Below, piece after piece: positions 4,872 to 64,000 of a stretch of DNA of 64,000 nucleotides. The position numbers and the translations under genes are program-made. The stretch's first letter is position 1. Each line of letters opens with the position of its first letter. The stretch lies in NCBI RefSeq assembly GCF_055900595.2, contig NZ_CM148325.1, one strand, 5' to 3'. The notes beneath the pieces were generated by a model. It worked only from the letters and a program-made list of their open reading frames with translations, made no database searches and was not told where the DNA came from.

Positions 4872-5246
4872 TTAATTCCCTTCCGCAGGCACCGTTTTAT
4901 CCGTCTGCGCAATTAACGCATGTAAAAAAGGTTGCGCGTTTTCATCGCTCTTACCGGGCATCTTCACGATATACGGCTTCCCGGTAATCGATGATGACGA
5001 AGCAACCTTATCAATAAATTGCTCAGCAGTATCAATGCGATTACGGGTATTGCCCAGCTTCAGACGCAAATGGGAAACCGCTTCATCGCAGGTATGTTCA
5101 TCGCCGTTGCGCACAAATATCAAATCCTTTTTCTGTGCTAATCCCTCCAGCATGGCGTTGATGCGGGCTTCTTCGTGGGCGGTTAACTTCGCGTAAGCGG
5201 GGAGTGTCATTAGCAGCGTAATGACCAGACAAATGATTTTCTTCAT
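4872..5246 (-). CDS. yfeK: Secreted small protein YfeK (signal peptide, function unknown)
   Basis: 124 aa with N-terminal signal peptide [19 protein letters not shown]; conserved position. Confidence 0.8.
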
Positions 5247-5271
5247 TGAATTACCTTATCCTTGTTTTGTG

Positions 5272-5337
<66 letters not shown>

Positions 5338-5350
5338 GAGAAAAAATTAA

Positions 5351-6202
5351 ATGAGTAGTTTGTTGTTGTTTAACGATAAGAGCAGGGCATTGCAGGCGGA
5401 TATCGTCGCCGTGCAGTCGCAGGTAGTGTACGGCAGCGTAGGCAACAGCATTGCCGTGCCTGCTATCAAACAGAACGGCCTGAATGTCTTTGCCGTGCCG
5501 ACGGTATTGCTGAGCAATACGCCGCATTATGACACTTTCTACGGTGGTGCGATTCCGGACGAATGGTTTAGCGGTTATTTGCGTGCGCTTCAGGAGCGTG
5601 ATGCGCTGCGCCAGCTGCGCGCTGTCACCACGGGCTATATGGGAACGGCATCGCAAATCAAAATCCTTGCCGAGTGGCTGACTGCGCTACGCAAAGACCA
5701 TCCTGACTTATTGATTATGGTCGATCCGGTGATTGGCGATATTGATAGCGGAATTTATGTCAAACCTGACCTTCCTGAGGCATACCGACAATATTTACTG
5801 CCTCTGGCGCAGGGTATTACGCCTAATATCTTTGAGCTGGAAATCCTGACCGGTAAAGATTGCCGCGATCTCGACAGTGCCATTGCCGCAGCAAAAAGTC
5901 TGCTTTCAGACACCTTAAAATGGGTGGTCATTACCAGCGCCTCCGGTAACGAAGAAAATCAGGAGATGCAGGTGGTGGTGGTCAGTGCCGACAGCGTGAA
6001 TGTCATTTCCCATTCTCGGGTAAAGACGGATCTTAAAGGAACAGGCGATCTGTTTTGCGCCCAGCTTATCAGTGGCTTGTTGAAAGGTAAGGAATTAACT
6101 GACGCGGTACATAGCGCGGGATTACGCGTGCTGCAGGTGATGCGCTATACCCAGCAGCATGGTAGTGATGAATTGATTTTGCCGCCCCTGACGGAAGCAT
6201 AA
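5351..6202 (+). CDS. pdxK: Pyridoxal/pyridoxine/pyridoxamine kinase PdxK
   Basis: 283 aa, ribokinase-like PL kinase family sequence; position adjacent to crr. Confidence 0.93.
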
Positions 6203-6230
6203 AAAAATGGCGCCCATCGGCGCCATTTTT
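6203..6230. terminator. Bidirectional rho-independent terminator between convergent pdxK and crr
   Basis: 8-bp perfect stem atggcgcc/ggcgccat flanked by A-run and T-run. Confidence 0.5.
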
Positions 6231-6244
6231 CACTGCGGCAAGAA

Positions 6245-21078: not shown

Positions 21079-21291
21079 GCAGATAGCAAAAAAGCGCCTT
21101 TAGGGCGCTTTTTTACATTGGTGGGTCGTGCAGGATGACTCGCTTCGCTCGCCCTTCGGGCCGTCGCCGCGAGCGGCTCCGTTGTTTCGCTGCGCTCAAC
21201 TCGAACCTGCTGCAGGTTCGAATCTTTGAGTATCGCAGATAGCAAAAAAGCGCCTTTAGGGCGCTTTTTTACATTGGTGGGTCGTGCAGGA
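21079..21291. repeat. 57-bp direct repeat (two copies, 21079-21135 and 21235-21291) comprising the lysV terminator plus the 3'-terminal 17 nt of tRNA-Lys
   Basis: gcagatagcaaaaaagcgcctttagggcgcttttttacattggtgggtcgtgcagga occurs twice 156 bp apart; second copy continues into intact lysV. Confidence 0.7.
21243..21269 (-). terminator. Rho-independent terminator of the valU-valX-valY-lysV tRNA operon
   Basis: On minus strand: stem agcgcc/ggcgct followed by TTTTTT, immediately 3' of lysV CCA end. Confidence 0.55.
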
Positions 21292-47575: not shown

Positions 47576-47819
47576 TGCTGACAGGCAGCATATTGAAGTA
47601 AAAGATTTTACTCCCTCCTGGCGACAATTTTTTATGACCACAATACGACCGATTGTGGTCATAAAATTATTTGGCGCTCGCGGTTCTATTAACACGAATT
47701 TTCTATTCCTCAAAGTAAACATCAATAATCCCGTGTCATCACGAAATCATTGTTTATGTTATGTTTTATGGTACGATTTAAAAATCGTAATCATTTCCCT
47801 AACTGTAAATCACAATCGC

Positions 47820-53374: not shown

Positions 53375-56300
53375 TTAGTCATTTTGTTGACAGAAAACCG
53401 CAATCTCCTGGTCTAACTCTGCAATGTGTTCTTTAACAGAGTTCAGCAACTTAAGAATTTCAGGCTTGCTGTCATCTGAAACTGGCGTTATTTCTAACTG
53501 GTGGCTAAGATTAATCAACTTTTGCAAATTCAGGATGTTAGCCGCACCGTGGATGCGATGAATACACTGATGGAAAGTTCTGTTATCGCCAGCTTCTAAC
53601 GCATGAAACGCAGCGGGTAGATCTTTATGCGTTTCATGCTGGAAAGTCATGAGAATCTCCTGCATCAGTTGTAGATCGTTCGCCGTATTATTTTTCAGGG
53701 CCTCGATATCAAGGTGGCGATACTGAGGTGCAATATGTGCAACCTGGTGTAACTGACTTAAATGTGTTTTCAGTACATCCAGGGTTAACGGTTTGAACAA
53801 ACATAAGTTCATGCCGCAATTTAACCCTTTTTCACGTTCGTTAGCCTGTGCGTTGGCTGTAAGCCCCCAGATGGGTAAGGAAGAATTTTGCTCACGGAGT
53901 TTGCGAGTCAACTCAAAACCATCCATATTCGGCATATTAACGTCAGTAATAAGCAGATCATAATGCTGCATACTGACTTTGTGTAGCGCCTGTACACCAT
54001 CAGAGGCTTCATCAACATCATATCCTAATAGGTTTAGCTGGCGTTTGAGTAATAGCCTGTTGGTCGGATGATCATCCGCGATTAATATGCTCAACTTTTC
54101 AGGGAGTGTCATAGGTTGTTCTGCTTTTGCCTCGACAGTCGCCACTTGTTGGGTAATTTCTACCGGGATTGTGATCGTAAATGTCGTTCCTATGCCGGGA
54201 TGACTTTCTAATGACAAATCGCCCTGCATGTTTTTAATTAATTCTTTGCAGATCATTAAGCCTAAACCAGAACCTGTTTGCTGACGACCTGCTGTTGTTT
54301 GGCTATAGCGTTTAAACAGTTGTTGTTGTTCTTCCTGCGATAATCCGCTTCCGGTGTCCATAATCGTCATTTTGATAACAGCGTGGTTGTCATCAATATG
54401 AACCAGGGAAGTCGTAATTTTTACTGCCCCCTCGGTGGTAAATTTAAGGGCATTACTCAGTAAATTAGACAGCACCTGCTTAAATGCTTGAGGGTCGATT
54501 TTAACCAGGTAGCGTTCAGGAAGCGTACTGCTGCAATTTAATGCGATGGATTTGCTTGCAGCAATCGCACCGAAAGAATGACAAGTGTTCTGGACTAAAG
54601 TAGGGATATCGACCCATTGTGGTTGAAGTTGATAGTTACCCGACTCAATTTTGTCGACATCAAGGATTTCACCAATTAAGCCGAGGAGCGACTGTCCGGT
54701 GGCGTAAGCAAGTGAAATCGCCTCCACACGTTGCTCCTTGCTAAGACCTGAACCCGACAGAAGTTCCAGGAAGCCCATAATGGAGCTTATTGGTGTTCTT
54801 ATTTCGTGACTCATTGTTGCCAGGAACTGGCTTTTTGCGACAGTTGCATTGATCGCTTTATTTCTTTCTACTTCGAGTGCATGAATTAAATCACGCGTCT
54901 CGGTAATATCTTGCCAACCACAAATATATACTGCATTGTCACTTGCAGGTAAATTGCATAATGTATGCCAATGATTAATGCATCTTTTTTCAGTACCATT
55001 ATTAATTTCAAAAACTTGGCTATATATTGTTCTGTTTTCTTTTGTTTCTGCTGTGACTTCATGCACATTAGAAAAAACATCTTTAAAGGGGGAGTCACTG
55101 TTTTCTAATGGTAACATTGCATTTTTGTAGTAATCAGCAGTGAAATAATGTTCAAATGCACTATTGTGACTAATGACATTACCTTGCCAGTTTACAACAT
55201 AAGTTGGATTCGGTAAGGAATCCGAGAGTGCTTTCCGGAATGATATTTGGTTTTCTAAATCACCCTGAATTACCTTACGACGACGAACTGAGCGTAACAG
55301 GTAGAATCCCCATAAAAGGCTACTGCCAACTAATAAAACGGATAAAGTCGTAACAATGTAAAATTGCTCACTATAGAGGTCCCATGTGTCAATGGTCACA
55401 TTGGGCATTTTGATCCATTTTTCCGTCAGGCGCAGAACTTCGCTTGGGGGAATTGCATTCAATGCTTTATTAATAATATCCTTAAGTTCTGGTTCTCCGC
55501 GAGGAAAAGCGAACGAAAGCGATGCATTCTCAACGCCGGGAATAAGAAAATGATAAAGCTCATTAGGATAGTAATGGTCGATCATGTAACGCGAATTTAG
55601 CTGTGTCGCGACCAGGGCATCAAGTTCACCTTCCTTAACCTTGTGAAATGCAGCGCTAGCATTATCGACTTGTATCCACTCAACCTCCGGATACATCTCT
55701 TTCAATTGCGAATGAAGCTCATAATAATATGGAATGGCAACTTTCATTCCTTTTTTTAAAGTTTGTTCACTATCAGGCGCTTTTTGCATGACGAAAACGT
55801 AAGGCGTTGTTATGAATGCTTCAGCAAATAAAACATTATTTTCTCGATCTTCATTATAAATAGCGCCAGGTAAGATATCCCATCCATCGGGATTAAGCTG
55901 TGTTCCGGCATGGATATTGTGTGAAACGGTGATCGGAGAAAATCTTAAACCTGTTTGCAATGTAATAATATTAAGAATATCCCCCATAACGCCCCGAACC
56001 GAGCCATTTTCATCAGTCATAGAATAGGGAGGGGAGTAAGGATTTTCCAGCACCTTTAAATCGGGATGTTGCTTAATCCACTGTTTTTCATGTTCAGTGA
56101 GTTCTAATGGTTTGTTCAGAAAGGCCAGGTTTCCTGTATCAAGCCAATTTTGTGATACTTCATAGCGAACTTCATTTGTTAAAGCATCAACAAACCGATT
56201 GAGTACTTCATTAAGAATGACGGATTCTTTTCTGGTCAAGAAAAAATTATATTGACGCGGCGAGTTATAATATTTCACTACATTTAAGGAGTGAGTGAAA

Positions 56301-58002: not shown

Positions 58003-59166
58003 GTGGAACAGATTAATTCAAATAAAAAACATTCTGACAGAAGAAAATATTTTGCTTTATTAGCAGTGGTTTTATTTATTGCGTTTTCAGGAGCCTATGC
58101 CTATTGGTCACTGGAATTAGAAGACATGATTAGTACAGATGACGCCTATGTTACGGGGAATGCTGATCCAATTTCTGCACAAGTCTCAGGCAGTGTCACT
58201 GTCGTTAATCATAAAGATACGAACTTTGTTCGACAGGGTGACATTTTAGTTTCACTGGATAAAACTGATGCTACGATTGCACTCAATAAAGCTAAAAATA
58301 ATCTGGCAAATATTGTGCGACAAACGAATAAACTATACTTACAGGATAAACAATACAGTGCCGAAGTCGCTTCAGCACGTATCCAGTATCAACAATCTTT
58401 AGAAGATTATAATCGTCGTGTGCCGCTAGCAAAGCAGGGGGTTATTTCAAAAGAAACGCTGGAGCACACCAAAGATACGTTAATAAGTAGCAAAGCGGCA
58501 TTGAATGCAGCTATTCAGGCTTATAAAGCGAACAAAGCCTTAGTAATGAACACACCATTAAATCGCCAGCCACAAGTTGTTGAAGCTGCGGATGCAACCA
58601 AAGAAGCCTGGTTGGCGCTTAAACGTACGGATATTAAGAGTCCGGTTACCGGTTATATTGCCCAGAGAAGTGTTCAGGTCGGCGAAACAGTGAGTCCTGG
58701 ACAATCGTTAATGGCTGTCGTACCGGCACGTCAAATGTGGGTTAATGCCAACTTTAAAGAAACACAACTCACGGATGTACGGATTGGTCAATCGGTTAAT
58801 ATAATCAGCGATCTTTATGGTGAAAATGTTGTGTTTCATGGTCAGGTGACAGGGATCAATATGGGAACCGGCAATGCGTTCTCCTTATTACCTGCACAAA
58901 ATGCGACAGGGAACTGGATCAAAATCGTTCAGCGTGTACCGGTTGAGGTGTCTCTGGATCCAAAAGAACTCATGGAACATCCCTTGCGCATTGGTTTATC
59001 GATGACTGCAACCATTGATACCAGGAACGAAGACATTGCCGATATGCCTGATCTGGCTTCATCCGTGACGTCAATGCCTGCTTACACCAGTAAGGCCTTA
59101 GTTATCGATACCAGTCCGATAGAAAAAGAGATTAACAACATTATTTCTCATAATGGACAACTTTAA
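58003..59166 (+). CDS. emrK: Multidrug efflux periplasmic adaptor EmrK (EmrA paralog)
   Basis: 387 aa HlyD-family membrane fusion protein. Confidence 0.93.
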   Translation: MEQINSNKKHSDRRKYFALLAVVLFIAFSGAYAYWSLELEDMISTDDAYVTGNADPISAQVSGSVTVVNHKDTNFVRQGDILVSLDKTDATIALNKAKNNLANIVRQTNKLYLQDKQYSAEVASARIQYQQSLEDYNRRVPLAKQGVISKETLEHTKDTLISSKAALNAAIQAYKANKALVMNTPLNRQPQVVEAADATKEAWLALKRTDIKSPVTGYIAQRSVQVGETVSPGQSLMAVVPARQMWVNANFKETQLTDVRIGQSVNIISDLYGENVVFHGQVTGINMGTGNAFSLLPAQNATGNWIKIVQRVPVEVSLDPKELMEHPLRIGLSMTATIDTRNEDIADMPDLASSVTSMPAYTSKALVIDTSPIEKEINNIISHNGQL

Positions 59167-60704
59167 TGGCAATCACTAAATCAACTCCGGCACCATTAAC
59201 CGGTGGGACGTTATGGTGCGTCACTATTGCATTGTCATTAGCGACGTTTATGCAAATGTTGGACTCCACTATTTCTAACGTCGCAATACCCACAATATCT
59301 GGCTTTCTCGGAGCATCAACGGACGAAGGCACATGGGTTATCACATCGTTTGGCGTAGCAAATGCCATTGCGATCCCTGTTACCGGCAGGCTGGCACAAA
59401 GAATAGGCGAATTAAGGTTATTTTTACTATCAGTAACCTTCTTTTCGCTGTCTTCATTAATGTGTAGTCTTTCGACTAATCTTGATGTTCTTATATTTTT
59501 TAGAGTCGTCCAGGGATTAATGGCGGGGCCGTTAATTCCATTGTCACAGAGTTTATTATTAAGGAATTATCCGCCAGAAAAAAGAACATTTGCTTTGGCG
59601 TTATGGTCAATGACCGTAATTATCGCTCCGATTTGTGGGCCGATATTGGGTGGCTATATTTGTGATAACTTTAGTTGGGGATGGATATTTTTAATCAATG
59701 TCCCTATGGGGATTATCGTCCTGACATTATGTTTAACTTTACTTAAAGGAAGAGAAACTGAAACTTCACCGGTCAAAATGAATTTACCAGGGTTGACCCT
59801 GTTAGTGCTCGGTGTTGGTGGCTTGCAAATTATGCTTGATAAAGGGCGCGATCTGGATTGGTTTAACTCGAGTACAATCATAATATTAACAATAGTGTCA
59901 GTTATTTCTCTGATCTCTCTAGTCATTTGGGAGTCGACCTCAGAGAACCCGATTCTTGACCTCAGTTTATTCACGTCGCGTAATTTCACCATTGGTATTG
60001 TGTGTATCACATGCGCATATTTATTTTACTCTGGGGCGATTGTACTTATGCCGCAGTTGCTGCAGGAAACTATGGGGTATAATGCGATATGGGCCGGGCT
60101 TGCCTATGCGCCAATCGGCATAATGCCACTATTAATATCGCCTTTAATAGGACGTTATGGCAACAAAATTGATATGCGTGCATTGGTTACATTTAGTTTT
60201 TTGATGTATGCGGTTTGCTATTACTGGCGTTCTGTGACATTTATGCCAACGATTGATTTCACAGGCATCATTTTGCCACAGTTTTTCCAGGGATTCGCCG
60301 TTGCCTGTTTCTTTTTACCCTTAACAACGATTTCGTTTTCAGGGTTGCCAGATAATAAATTTGCCAATGCCTCGAGTATGAGTAATTTTTTTCGTACCCT
60401 GTCAGGATCAGTTGGTACGTCGTTGACAATGACGTTGTGGGGACGACGCGAATCGTTACACCATAGTCAGTTGACAGCAACCATCGATCAATTTAACCCC
60501 GTGTTTAATTCATCATCACAAATTATGGATAAATACTATGGTTCGCTTTCAGGGGTTCTTAATGAAATTAATAATGAAATAACTCAGCAGTCACTTTCAA
60601 TTTCTGCAAATGAGATTTTCCGTATGGCGGCTATTGCTTTTATCTTACTTACGGTATTGGTTTGGTTTGCGAAACCGCCGTTTACAGCGAAAGGTGTTGG
60701 GTGA
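59166..60704 (+). CDS. emrY: Multidrug efflux MFS transporter EmrY (EmrB paralog)
   Basis: 512 aa, 14-TM MFS; start overlaps emrK stop. Confidence 0.93.
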   Translation: MAITKSTPAPLTGGTLWCVTIALSLATFMQMLDSTISNVAIPTISGFLGASTDEGTWVITSFGVANAIAIPVTGRLAQRIGELRLFLLSVTFFSLSSLMCSLSTNLDVLIFFRVVQGLMAGPLIPLSQSLLLRNYPPEKRTFALALWSMTVIIAPICGPILGGYICDNFSWGWIFLINVPMGIIVLTLCLTLLKGRETETSPVKMNLPGLTLLVLGVGGLQIMLDKGRDLDWFNSSTIIILTIVSVISLISLVIWESTSENPILDLSLFTSRNFTIGIVCITCAYLFYSGAIVLMPQLLQETMGYNAIWAGLAYAPIGIMPLLISPLIGRYGNKIDMRALVTFSFLMYAVCYYWRSVTFMPTIDFTGIILPQFFQGFAVACFFLPLTTISFSGLPDNKFANASSMSNFFRTLSGSVGTSLTMTLWGRRESLHHSQLTATIDQFNPVFNSSSQIMDKYYGSLSGVLNEINNEITQQSLSISANEIFRMAAIAFILLTVLVWFAKPPFTAKGVG

Positions 60705-60781
60705 TGGTAAAAAGAGGAGGCTAGAGCAGGCAAGTCCGCGGAATTTTGAACCTGTACCATCATTTTATATGGATATTATCA

Positions 60782-60821
60782 GGCAGCATCGCTCACCCAG
60801 GGAAAGGATGGCGATGCTGCG
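60782..60821. other. Perfect 10-bp inverted repeat hairpin between convergent emrY and dsdA (possible terminator)
   Basis: gcagcatcgc ... gcgatgctgc; no T-run. Confidence 0.3.
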
Positions 60822-60832
60822 GTGAAACGTTA

Positions 60833-62161
60833 TTAACGGCCTTTAGCCAGATATTGCTTCATCTCTTCTTCCGGCACCATTCCACCTCCTGTCGCCCACA
60901 CCAGATGAGTGGCATTACGCAGTTGTTCTGTGCTGAAACCTTGCATCTGTTGGTAAATTACTGATGCGCACACGCGCTGAGGCCCGGCCATACCCGCCAG
61001 TGCTGAAGGCTCAAGACGAATGTCTTCTTCCTGCGCCAGCCAGCCAAGCATGTCATACATGGTTTGATCGCTAAGGGTATAGAAGCCATCCAGCAGACGC
61101 TCCATTGCCCGCCCGACAAAGCCTGATGCGCGACCAACAGCAAGGCCATCCGCTGCGGTAAGGTTGTCGATACCAATATCCTGAACAGAAATCTGATCGT
61201 GTAATCCAGTATGGACGCCTAACAGCATACAAGGGGAGTGCGTGGGTTCGGCAAAAAAGCAGTGAACATGATCGCCAAACGCCAGTTTAAGACCGAATGC
61301 GACGCCACCAGGACCACCGCCAACGCCACACGGCAGATAGACAAACAGAGGGTTACCAGCATCGACGATACGACCTTGCTTGGCAAATTGCGCTTTAAGA
61401 CGCTGGCCTGCGACGGAATACCCAAGGAACAACGTGCGGGAATTCTCGTCATCAATAAAGAAACAGTTCGGGTCAGACTGCGCTGCTTTACGTCCTTCCT
61501 CGACGGCAACCCCATAATCTTGCTCATATTCCACGACCGTAACGCCATGGCTGCGCAGTTTCTCTTTTTTCCATGCTCGGGCATCAGCAGACATATGCAC
61601 TGTCACCTTAAAGCCAATGCGGGCGCTCATAATGCCGATTGATAACCCCAGATTTCCGGTTGAGCCCACAGCAATGCTGTATTGGCTAAAGAACTGTTTA
61701 AACTCCGGAGAAAGCAGTTTGCTGTAGTCATCTTCAAGCGTCAGCAACCCTGCTTCCAGAGCCAGTTTTTCTGCATGTGCCAGGACTTCATAAATCCCGC
61801 CGCGTGCTTTTATGGAGCCGGAAATAGGCAAATGGCTATCTTTTTTCAGTAACAGTTGCCCGCTGATCGGTTGCTGATATTCCTTTTCCAGCCGTTTTTG
61901 CATAGCCGGAATGGCAACCAGTTCTGATTCAATAATCCCTCCAGAGGCAGCCGTTTCAGGAAATGCTTTTGCCAGATAGGGGGCAAAACGAGATAAGCGC
62001 GCATGGGCGTCCTGAACATCCTGTTCGGTCAGGCCAACATAAGGTAAACCTTCAGCCAATGAGGTCGTGCCAGGATTGAACCAGGTGGTTTCTTTAAGAG
62101 CAACCAGATCCTTTACCAACGGATACTGGGCGATGAGCGAGTTCATTTTAGCGTTTTCCAT
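60833..62161 (-). CDS. dsdA: D-serine ammonia-lyase (D-serine dehydratase)
   Basis: 442 aa [19 protein letters not shown]...; PLP-lysine context SGSIKARGG. Confidence 0.95.
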
Positions 62162-62361
62162 AGTATGTCTCTTTGCGCTTCGATGATAAATGACAGCAGG
62201 AATGTGCCCGCCAGAGCGACGACTGAAGCGATAAATGTCGCTGTCGTATAGTATTTATATGTTTCACTGAGCGTAGCGCCGCAAAATTGTTTCATCAGCC
62301 AGAAAAACGAGTCCGTAACGATCGTGCAGCCAATCGCAATAATTTCCGGGCTGATGTCTGG
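62143..62361 (-). pseudogene. dsdX: 3'-terminal remnant of D-serine transporter gene dsdX (about 72 codons, 5' truncated)
   Basis: Hand translation of minus strand gives [60 protein letters not shown]..., a GntP-family C-terminus; frame closed by in-frame TAA at 62362-62364; overlaps dsdA start. Confidence 0.5.
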
Positions 62362-62617
62362 TTACAGCCACAGCACAATGATCCATATTTATATTTTTTC
62401 TCCGGGTGGGTGATGCCAGTCGGCATGTTTTACCTACTTGTCTGCATGGTGACTCGTTGGCGAGAACAGAGGCGGAATTGGTTACAATTGTCCGGGAATT
62501 CTTGTTATTTTTTACTGTATTGTCGTGTCGGGTGATAGGACGTTAAGAATATCGCTGGATCTCGCCAGTGACGTCTGTTTCTGCTACAGTGCCCGTTTTA
62601 CGGCAAACGGCTTGGGT

Positions 62618-63613
62618 ATGGCTTCATTAAAGGATGTCGCACGCCTGGCGGGAGTGTCGATGATGACTGTCTCCCGGGTGATGCATAATGCAGAATCTGT
62701 GCGTCCTGCAACGCGTGACCGCGTATTGCAGGCAATCCAAACCCTGAATTATGTTCCTGATCTTTCCGCTCGTAAGATGCGCGCTCAGGGACGTAAGCCG
62801 TCGACTCTCGCCGTGCTGGCGCAGGATACTGCTACCACTCCTTTCTCTGTTGATATTCTGCTTGCCATTGAACAAACCGCCAGCGAGTTTGGCTGGAATA
62901 GTTTTTTAATCAATATTTTTTCTGAAGATGACGCTGCCCGCGCGGCACGTCAGCTGCTTGCCCTCCGTCCGGATGGCATTATCTATTCTACAATGGGACT
63001 GAGGCATATCACGCTGCCTGAGTCTCTGCATGGTGAAAATATTGTATTGGCGAACTGTGTGGCGGATGACCCAGCGTTACCCAGTTATATCCCTGATGAT
63101 TACACTGCCCAATATGAAGCAACACAGCATTTGCTCGCGGCAGGCTATCGTCAACCGTTATGCTTCTGGCTACCGGAAGGTGCGTTGGCAACAGGGTATC
63201 GTCGGCAGGGATTTGAGCAGGCCTGGCGTGATGCTGGACGAGATCTGGCTGAGGTGAAACAATTTCACATGGTCATAGGTGATGATCACTACACCGATCT
63301 CGCAAGTATACTCAATGCCCACTTCCCGTCTGGAAAACCAGATTTTGATGTTCTGATTTGTGGTAACGATCGCGCAGCCTTTGTGGCTTATCAGGTTCTT
63401 CTGGCGAAGGGGGTACGTATCCCGCAGGATGTCGCCGTAATGGGCTTTGATAATCTGGTTGGCGTCGGGCATCTGTTTTTACCGCCGCTGACCACAATTC
63501 AGCTTCCACATGACATTATCGGGCGGGAAGCTGCATTGCATATTATTGAAGGTCGTGAAGGGGGAAGGGTAACGCAGATCCCTTGCCCGCTGTTGATCCG
63601 TTGTTCCACCTGA
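62618..63613 (+). CDS. cscR: LacI-family sucrose operon repressor CscR (start trimmed to MASLKDV)
   Basis: 331 aa from trimmed start; LacI-type HTH (MASLKDVARLAGVSMMTVSRVMHN) and periplasmic-binding-like sugar domain. Confidence 0.85.
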   Translation: MASLKDVARLAGVSMMTVSRVMHNAESVRPATRDRVLQAIQTLNYVPDLSARKMRAQGRKPSTLAVLAQDTATTPFSVDILLAIEQTASEFGWNSFLINIFSEDDAARAARQLLALRPDGIIYSTMGLRHITLPESLHGENIVLANCVADDPALPSYIPDDYTAQYEATQHLLAAGYRQPLCFWLPEGALATGYRRQGFEQAWRDAGRDLAEVKQFHMVIGDDHYTDLASILNAHFPSGKPDFDVLICGNDRAAFVAYQVLLAKGVRIPQDVAVMGFDNLVGVGHLFLPPLTTIQLPHDIIGREAALHIIEGREGGRVTQIPCPLLIRCST

Positions 63614-63620
63614 TATTATG

Positions 63621-64000
63621 TTACCCCAGTTGCCAGAGTGCTCCATGTTTCAGCACGGCCACTCCGTGGGCGGCATAGAGCGACAGTTCCCGTTCTTCTG
63701 GCTGCGGATAGATTCGGCTACTCATCACTGCTTCCCCGTCGTTAATAAATACTTCCACGGATGATGTATCGATAAATATCCTTAGGGCGAGCGTGTCACG
63801 CTGCGGGAGGGGAATACTACGGTAACCATCTAAATTCTCGTGTGGGTAATACCGCCACAAAACAAGTCGCTCAGATTGGTTATCAATATACAGCCGCATT
63901 CCCGTGCCGAGCTGTAATCCGTAATGTTCGGCATCGCTGTTCTTCAGAGCCCAGTGCAACTGAATCTCAACCGCTTGCGCGTTTTCCTGCAAAACATATT
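63621..64000 (-). CDS. cscA: Sucrose-6-phosphate hydrolase / invertase CscA (GH32), C-terminal part only; gene runs off right edge
   Basis: Minus-strand ORF ending 7 nt from cscR stop, C-terminal beta-sandwich-like sequence; convergent cscR-cscA arrangement typical of the csc locus. Confidence 0.75.
   Translation of the reverse strand, partial: YVLQENAQAVEIQLHWALKNSDAEHYGLQLGTGMRLYIDNQSERLVLWRYYPHENLDGYRSIPLPQRDTLALRIFIDTSSVEVFINDGEAVMSSRIYPQPEERELSLYAAHGVAVLKHGALWQLG

Follow-up and report, generated by a model that had tools for sequence, protein, structure and literature searches.

What does a strong hairpin do in the short gap between two convergent genes, to which of the two does it belong, and where did it come from? 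These questions are raised by a locus in a stretch of 64,000 nucleotides, referred to here as a whole as the window. On its + strand the window carries emrY (59166-60704), the convergent neighbour in E. coli, and on its - strand dsdA (60833-62161), which encodes D-serine ammonia-lyase. The convergent calls for both genes were confirmed from the annotation of the identical RefSeq record NZ_CP027579.1 (strain 2013C-4282). The two genes are separated by a gap of 128 nt, and this gap holds the hairpin at 60783-60820. On the + strand the emrY stop codon lies 78 nt before the hairpin; on the - strand the dsdA stop codon (60833-60835) lies 12 nt upstream of it. A preliminary description of the locus had recognised the stem and had offered three readings of it, namely a Rho-dependent or a factor-independent block to convergent transcription, or a protein-binding palindrome.

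Structure of the hairpin

The outer stem is built from the arms GCAGCATCGC (60783-60792) and GCGATGCTGC (60811-60820), which are 100% complementary and form the ten perfect base pairs of the preliminary description; the spacing of 20 nt that it gave between the arms is in fact 18 nt. It was right about the strength of the stem and missed five further pairs that form on the - strand, the strand of the dsdA-sense RNA. In this inner stem nucleotides 60806-60810 pair with 60794-60798 (CAUCC/GGGUG), and one of the pairs is a U.G that corresponds to a C.A mismatch on the + strand. The two strands are unequal in this respect, the inner stem pairing on the dsdA-sense strand only. The complete - strand fold comprises 15 pairs, a one-base bulge at 60793 and a 7-nt loop at 60799-60805. 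Folding energies, which the preliminary description had named as a check, bear out a strong structure: a segment of 57 nt reaches -28.1 kcal/mol (z -6.5) on the - strand and -24.5 kcal/mol (z -4.7) on the + strand, and on either strand 0 of 200 shuffles were equally stable.

The inverted repeat exceeds chance. First-order Markov simulations of 64 kb led us to expect about two perfect 10-mer inverted repeats per window (loop of 3-30 nt), and the window has 29 of them, distributed over about 14 loci and mostly in the form of A/T-flanked, terminator-like hairpins. A single match to the core pattern CAGCATCG(N5-30)CGATGCTG exists in the window, and none turned up in 100 shuffles. Among the other long perfect inverted repeats are those at 47630-47666, 53601-53639 and 55066-55110, with arms of up to ~15 bp, and a pair of perfect hairpins with the same arms (AAAAAAGCGCC...) at 21088-21114 and 21244-21270, 156 nt apart.

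A G+C-rich hairpin between convergent 3' ends, with a stem of 10-15 bp and a folding energy of -28.1 kcal/mol, has much in common with canonical intrinsic and bidirectional terminators. Unlike those, it lacks the U-rich tract (about five or more U in 8 nt): the tail is CUGAUAAU on the - strand and GGUGAAAC on the + strand, with neither a U tract on one side nor an A tract on the other, whereas most of the other repeats in the window have A/T runs. The statement that no T-run flanks the stem on either side thus stands, and a terminator scan of 60300-61300 returned 0 sites. A factor-independent block to transcription is unlikely because there is no U tract. Searches of the same interval (60300-61300) yielded chance-level matches only to Rfam 15 at E values up to 10 (E 2-8, bit scores far below gathering), and only one weak promoter-like site, inside emrY, in a consensus promoter scan.

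Origin from the 3' end of yidF

When the hairpin alone is used as the query of a sensitive BLAST search, the median number of places matched in an E. coli genome is two. The second copy is the 3' coding end of yidF, a gene that is convergent with emrD and separated from it by 7 nt, and the two copies are 84% identical over 43 nt. The likeness extends to the encoded peptide. Read on the + strand, 60772-60825 corresponds to the last 17 codons and the stop codon of yidF, no longer part of any gene, and its translation DIIRQHRSPRERMAMLR matches the YidF C-terminus DLIKQHRSPMELMTMLR at 12 of 17 residues, each peptide ending in a stop; many of the differences at the DNA level fall on third codon positions. 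The hairpin is almost certainly the remnant of the last ~18 codons of a yidF gene, an origin in a coding 3' end that the preliminary description had overlooked. YidF is itself a truncated anaerobic-sulfatase-maturase-like protein, a sub-threshold fragment of the TIGR03942 family (E 5e-21; 75 bits, with a cut-off of 349 bits). Two other K-12 anaerobic-sulfatase-maturase genes, aslB and ydeM, were taken as controls; they have the C-terminal peptide motif in common and the hairpin is absent from both.

The two copies are homologous, with the same 10-bp stem and one compensated pair, and both lie 7-12 nt past the stop codon of the convergent gene. They differ in their setting: the yidF copy is coding, with UUUAUC behind it, and the copy in the window codes for nothing and lacks a U tract. 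The remnant need not be derived from the yidF gene that E. coli retains, and the arrangement in other species points elsewhere. In a comparison set of 80 dsdA loci, all of species other than E. coli, about 35 enterobacterial species have a yidF that converges on dsdA and stops 9-20 nt past the dsdA stop codon, the genera including Citrobacter, Klebsiella, Pseudocitrobacter, Leclercia, Lelliottia and Silvania, together with Salmonella diarizonae. Behind the dsdA-adjacent yidF lie yidG and yidH, and in many of the loci emrD is found upstream of dsdC. The final codons of the dsdA-adjacent yidF (...MRVMRDLIKQHRSPxELMAMLR, then stop) hold this same hairpin, read on the dsdA-sense strand. As a test of the origin, the intact dsdA-yidF junctions of other genera were compared with the E. 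coli intergenic sequence, and they do align with it. The innermost stem pair is C-G both in the window and in the dsdA-adjacent yidF of Citrobacter, and in E. coli's own yidF it is T-A, a compensated change. By these comparisons the remnant is to be traced to a dsdA-adjacent yidF of another lineage and not to E. coli's own yidF.

The near-identity of the window stem to that of the dsdA-adjacent yidF of Citrobacter implies an ancestral order in which dsdA was convergent with yidF and the hairpin lay inside yidF. That order, found in most Enterobacteriaceae, is emrD, dsdC, dsdX and dsdA, followed by yidF-yidG-yidH on the opposite strand. In E. coli, dsdCXA has come to lie elsewhere, beside emrKY, bringing along only the tail of yidF (~18 codons), whose reading frame has then decayed with both arms of the stem kept. 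The hairpin marks the donor edge of the relocated dsdCXA segment, ~55 nt into yidF. Upstream of 60772, local alignments to seven yidF genes found no yidF similarity, and the suggestion by eye that 60690-60771 might be decayed yidF (a likeness to GGAGG...GGGTTAT) was rejected, as the alignments to these seven genes were no better than those of shuffles. A protein-database search with the 41-aa + strand translation gave no match and no candidate with enough shared 5-residue words, and a literature search found no paper that names both dsdCXA and yidF.

Association with dsdA

The preliminary description had tied the hairpin to the convergent layout of emrY and dsdA. This tie does not survive comparison, since the hairpin follows dsdA in Escherichia sp. 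E1V33, in E. albertii and in Kluyvera, all of which lack emrY at this place. In E1V33 and E. albertii the gene after dsdA is co-directional, lpxP-like and ~0.9 kb away. In Kluyvera georgiana and K. ascorbata the relic hairpin stands after dsdA with neither yidF nor emrY there, the Kluyvera evidence consisting of three genomes without emrY. Judging from this distribution, the partner of the hairpin is dsdA and not emrY. The arrangement suggests that the emrKY block, presumably with evgAS, was inserted between the dsdA-hairpin unit and the lpxP-like gene in the E. coli lineage. The lpxP-like gene encodes an acyltransferase and occupies positions 5217-6137 of the E1V33 locus (L007) and 5245-6231 of the E. 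albertii locus (L008).

Transcript ends and a probable role in dsdXA mRNA

On balance, the hairpin is probably a protective 3' stem-loop without a U tract that serves a Rho-terminated dsdXA mRNA and is derived from the yidF remnant. According to this scheme the hairpin would form in the dsdXA mRNA 12 nt past the dsdA stop codon, RNA polymerase would read through it, and Rho would terminate transcription farther downstream, in an untranslated C-rich stretch antisense to emrY. Exonucleases working in the 3'-to-5' direction would then trim the transcript to the base of the hairpin, and the message would thereby be protected. We infer that the dsdA mRNA ends at the hairpin, and that the hairpin is a barrier to exonucleases rather than a weak terminator.

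Just downstream of the hairpin on the dsdA-sense strand lies a C-rich, G-poor tract (60658-60735; 37% C, 13% G), by composition only a candidate Rho loading region. In K-12, regions of Rho termination have been defined by DirectRNA-seq with and without the Rho inhibitor bicyclomycin (Adams et al.; PMC7815308, supplementary file 2). One of them, at 2480768 (+), is antisense to emrY (Rho score 3.87, p 3.9e-9); at the orthologous K-12 locus it falls 238 nt past the dsdA stop codon and 188 nt past the hairpin, the coordinates being coarse since they derive from 800-nt comparison windows (PMC7815308). The Rho-dependent part of the preliminary description is made plausible by the bicyclomycin-defined region and the C-rich tract; its link to the convergent arrangement of emrY and dsdA is not. 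Structure behind dsdA is also a wider phenomenon. Across 79 enterobacterial loci the 80 nt after dsdA fold at a median of -28.7 kcal/mol, as against -22.5 kcal/mol for windows inside dsdA (p 7e-11). The structures in question range from yidF hairpins and relics to REP-like palindromes and, in a few cases, canonical terminators; a U tract is lacking in most.

The 3' ends of dsdA and emrY are absent from both K-12 tables (PMC10687069, PMC7815308), and both genes are poorly expressed in LB, dsdA requiring induction by D-serine. The paralogous locus is more informative. The primary 3' end of K-12 emrD has been placed at 3855162 (+) in the LB RNAtag-seq sheet of the TRS study (PMC10687069, Supplementary Data 3), significant in two of three replicates of one data set; the Term-seq list of PMC7815308 does not include it. 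This end lies 6 nt past the yidF-embedded hairpin, within UUUAUC (emrD ends at 3855106 and the stem at 3855156), and the fold listed for it is that very hairpin on the emrD-sense strand, at -19.2 kcal/mol (PMC10687069). The site concerned is 3855119-3855162 of NC_000913.3 (2120-2163 of locus L088), and the emrD 3' end there is within the yidF coding sequence. A second Rho region of K-12, at 3854772 (-), lies inside emrD and antisense to it (PMC7815308), which indicates that yidF-sense transcripts pass the hairpin and are stopped by Rho in emrD.

These data also bear on whether the hairpin might serve both neighbours. A two-way barrier that ends or caps the emrKY as well as the dsdXA transcripts, and so insulates the convergent operons, would be in keeping with a + strand RNA that folds well too (-24.5 kcal/mol, z -4.7), with the C-rich composition of the emrY-sense strand past the hairpin (60822-60919; 35% C, 15-17% G) and with G.U and A.C counts at variable sites that are free of strand bias. 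It is at odds with the inner stem, which pairs on the dsdA-sense strand only, and with the paralogous K-12 locus, where the mapped 3' end lies at the hairpin on the emrD-sense strand only and yidF-sense transcripts continue to the Rho region at 3854772 (-). The hairpin is, moreover, conserved without emrY and with a co-directional gene next to it, so that a role for emrY cannot account for its retention. For these reasons we consider a two-way barrier unlikely.

Slightly more doubtful still is weak hairpin-dependent intrinsic termination, in which the hairpin would stop RNA polymerase without Rho despite its poor U tract. The tail reads CUGAUAAU in the window and CGAUGGCG in K-12 (1 U in 8), the scan gave no site resembling a terminator, and in K-12 there is Rho-dependent control of read-through downstream. 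The history of the tail is kinder to this alternative, as the ancestral stem is followed by UUUGAU or UUUAAU and that of Kluyvera by UUUAUC, and the emrD 3' end, 6 nt past the stem within UUUAUC, is at the usual distance for intrinsic termination.

A protective stem-loop would find precedents among Rho-dependent transcripts. One report (PMC6061677) describes such transcripts as carrying stable stem-loops that are not followed by U-rich sequence and that protect against PNPase and RNase II, with Rho-loading (rut) sites just downstream. The hairpin described here is alike in being stable, in lying just past a stop codon and in lacking a U-rich stretch. The C-rich region immediately downstream is a candidate for Rho loading, and the Rho region mapped in K-12 is situated farther on. 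Membership of the hairpin in this class is putative, and it has the additional feature that it can be traced to the coding 3' end of a convergent gene.

Conservation of the stem

An alignment of ten non-coding relics from Escherichia and Kluyvera defines which parts of the remnant have been kept. Invariance among the intergenic columns is confined to the stop codon of dsdA, to the arms CAGCATCG and CG(A/G)TGCTG, and to two bases past the stem. Invariant positions account for 16/20 of the stem as against 14/68 of loop plus flank in the Escherichia relics (p 2e-6), and for 20/20 as against 35/68 in those of Kluyvera (p 3e-5). In E. albertii the 18-nt interior has been exchanged for a loop of 5 nt, giving a 12-bp stem of -22.5 kcal/mol, and Kluyvera has a different short loop and retains the tail UUUAUC; in both, the loop codons of the remnant have been deleted.

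That the hairpin is a functionless fossil, yidF sequence that has simply not yet decayed and plays no role in E. coli, is improbable in the light of this pattern. The element is demonstrably a gene remnant, the YidF peptide sequence imposes much of the pairing, and the expression data hold no transcript end there, dsdA and emrY being poorly expressed in LB; all this would suit a fossil. Across Escherichia and Kluyvera, however, loop and flanks have been deleted or have diverged and the arms are invariant, and the sparing of exactly the 2 x 8-10 paired bases is not what neutral decay would produce. The same variation leaves the protein-binding palindrome of the preliminary description unsupported, as in E. 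albertii and Kluyvera the arms are intact at a spacing of 5-9 nt instead of 18 nt. Any palindrome acting at the DNA level, whether as the target of a protein or as a place of recombination or cruciform formation, is most improbable: it has in its favour the perfect 10-bp inverted arms and the position at the edge of a segment moved between genomic sites, and against it the varying distance between conserved arms (18, 9 and 5 nt), the lack of a repeat family (per genome only the dsdA copy and the yidF copy) and the absence of a REP consensus or an Rfam match.

Constraint is also evident where yidF is intact. Between E. coli and Citrobacter or Salmonella, YidF is 86-95% identical over its final 22 residues, as compared with 45-50% over the first 143. 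In Klebsiella and Enterobacter, paired changes keep the stem: H to Q goes with M to L, and A to P with a synonymous change of an Arg codon. The gene is of full length (370-376 aa) in C. amalonaticus and Pseudocitrobacter (loci L033 and L017) and reaches only 160-176 aa in E. coli, other Citrobacter, Salmonella diarizonae and Klebsiella (L035, L036, L020, L021, L023, L045). It seems that yidF is decaying from its 5' end in several lineages with the last 22 codons nearly fixed, and we read these stages as a progressive decay in which the 3' end would be the last to go.

Part of the pairing has its source in the protein. Shuffles of synonymous codons still fold at -14 to -20 kcal/mol, so that the YidF peptide itself imposes much of it. 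The real yidF ends are ~2 sd more stable than such shuffles in the Citrobacter, Klebsiella and Salmonella group, an excess that is absent in Lelliottia, Leclercia and Silvania. Covariation is weak: pairing is 82.9%, as against 81.1% in shuffles, of which 3/500 score as high, and the covariation score is matched by 49/500 shuffles. Changes on both sides are limited to two pairs and probably come from a single lineage. The counts are blurred by lineages in which the hairpin is in a shifted register (Pseudocitrobacter, Leclercia, Silvania). The G.U and A.C counts do not tell which strand is under selection, as the asymmetry disappears once the fixed U.G pair is removed (23 G.U and 25 A.C at variable sites). 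As a separate observation, Klebsiella oxytoca and K. spallanzanii have a canonical terminator (a stem followed by T7) inserted between dsdA and yidF (L026 4330-4390, L030 4330-4395). Both also retain only 6-8 of the 14 pairs of the yidF-embedded hairpin, which is suggestive and confined to one clade.

Relation to REP elements and wider significance

The role proposed for the hairpin, a barrier to exonucleases, is the one ascribed to REP (repetitive extragenic palindromic) elements, which Newbury, Higgins and colleagues reportedly recognised as 3' stabilisers of mRNA in 1987. Several Enterobacter and Lelliottia species in fact have a REP-like palindrome (GCCGGGTGGCGGCTGCGCCTTACCCGGCCTAC) at the same spot after dsdA. 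The hairpin is set apart from the REP/BIME family in that it departs from the REP consensus and, instead of being dispersed, occurs once in the window and, as a median, twice per E. coli genome; both of these copies are explained by yidF ancestry.

If the 3' end of yidF has been held in place by the needs of the opposite strand, it could be an old dual-use sequence, encoding the C-terminus of YidF on one strand and the 3'-end hairpin of the convergent gene on the other, with its codons conserved by the antisense RNA requirement and not by the protein. We put this forward tentatively, at slightly under even chances. Were it true, the convergent partner would be dsdA in most Enterobacteriaceae and emrD in E. 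coli, and the antisense requirement would force paired amino-acid changes such as H to Q with M to L. The hairpin would also outlive the gene, passing from a reading frame of 370-376 aa to one of 160-176 aa, on to an 18-codon relic and finally to a bare stem. Were it general, it would be common for convergent genes to carry, in their ends, the transcript-end signals of their partners, and the retention of some 'junk' gene fragments would be due to such signals.

The derivation from yidF and the proposed protective role would together account for an unannotated, strongly conserved block of 38 nt in an intergenic region that nearly all E. coli possess. They predict where the dsdXA mRNA ends, which is of relevance to the D-serine catabolism of uropathogenic and enterohaemorrhagic strains. 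The loci compared here form a clean natural series in which a transcript-end hairpin inside the coding sequence of a convergent gene would survive the loss of that gene, and they might become a test case for how Rho-dependent transcripts gain and keep protective 3' structures. The element is of an ordinary kind with an unusual, traceable origin, and no new mechanism is revealed by it.

Variation among E. coli genomes and the surrounding region

The intergenic region, compared as window 60650-60890, is present in 5,397 of 5,426 complete E. coli genomes, and only 12 of the complete genomes carry a form at least 99% identical to that of the window. Most E. coli versions are 80-90% identical to the window and 21-22 nt shorter. 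Missing from most E. coli is a 20-nt segment, ATTTTATATGGATATTATCA (60762-60781), which holds the D-I-I codons of the remnant; since these codons are part of yidF, the common E. coli form is the product of a deletion, and this deletion breaks the reading frame of the remnant. The alignment has a near-invariant hairpin block and a diverged emrY-side half of the gap. In comparison with K-12, the hairpin block is identical at 49/51 positions, and the rest of the gap is ~72% identical with the 20-nt indel; dsdA is 97.0% identical (93% at third codon positions) and emrY 94.5%. The emrY-side half of the gap is closer to divergent Escherichia lineages (L007, L009) than to typical E. coli, and together with the small number of closely matching genomes this hints that the dsdA-proximal segment of this strain may be recombinant or imported.

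The gap also contains features with the outward signs of a gene. A + strand open reading frame at 60610-60825 (71 aa) terminates in the yidF-relic codons. As a candidate small gene it was rejected: it overlaps the 3' end of emrY out of frame, it is not conserved, it is destroyed by the 20-nt deletion in most E. coli, and it is very probably spurious. A strong Shine-Dalgarno-like sequence, AAGAGGAGG at 60712-60720 (+), lies 8 nt past the stop codon of emrY, and within its reach there is no start codon; its complement falls within the C-rich tract that follows the hairpin.

On the far side of dsdA the window departs from the usual arrangement. Directly upstream of the gene, dsdX is reduced to a fragment of 219 nt (62143-62361, - strand), and beyond it lie a gene for a LacI-family regulator (62525-63613, + strand) and cscA, encoding sucrose-6-phosphate hydrolase (63621-64000, - strand). 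The dsdX remnant and the csc sucrose genes represent the known replacement of dsdCX by csc, which leaves the dsdA of this strain without its activator and its transporter.
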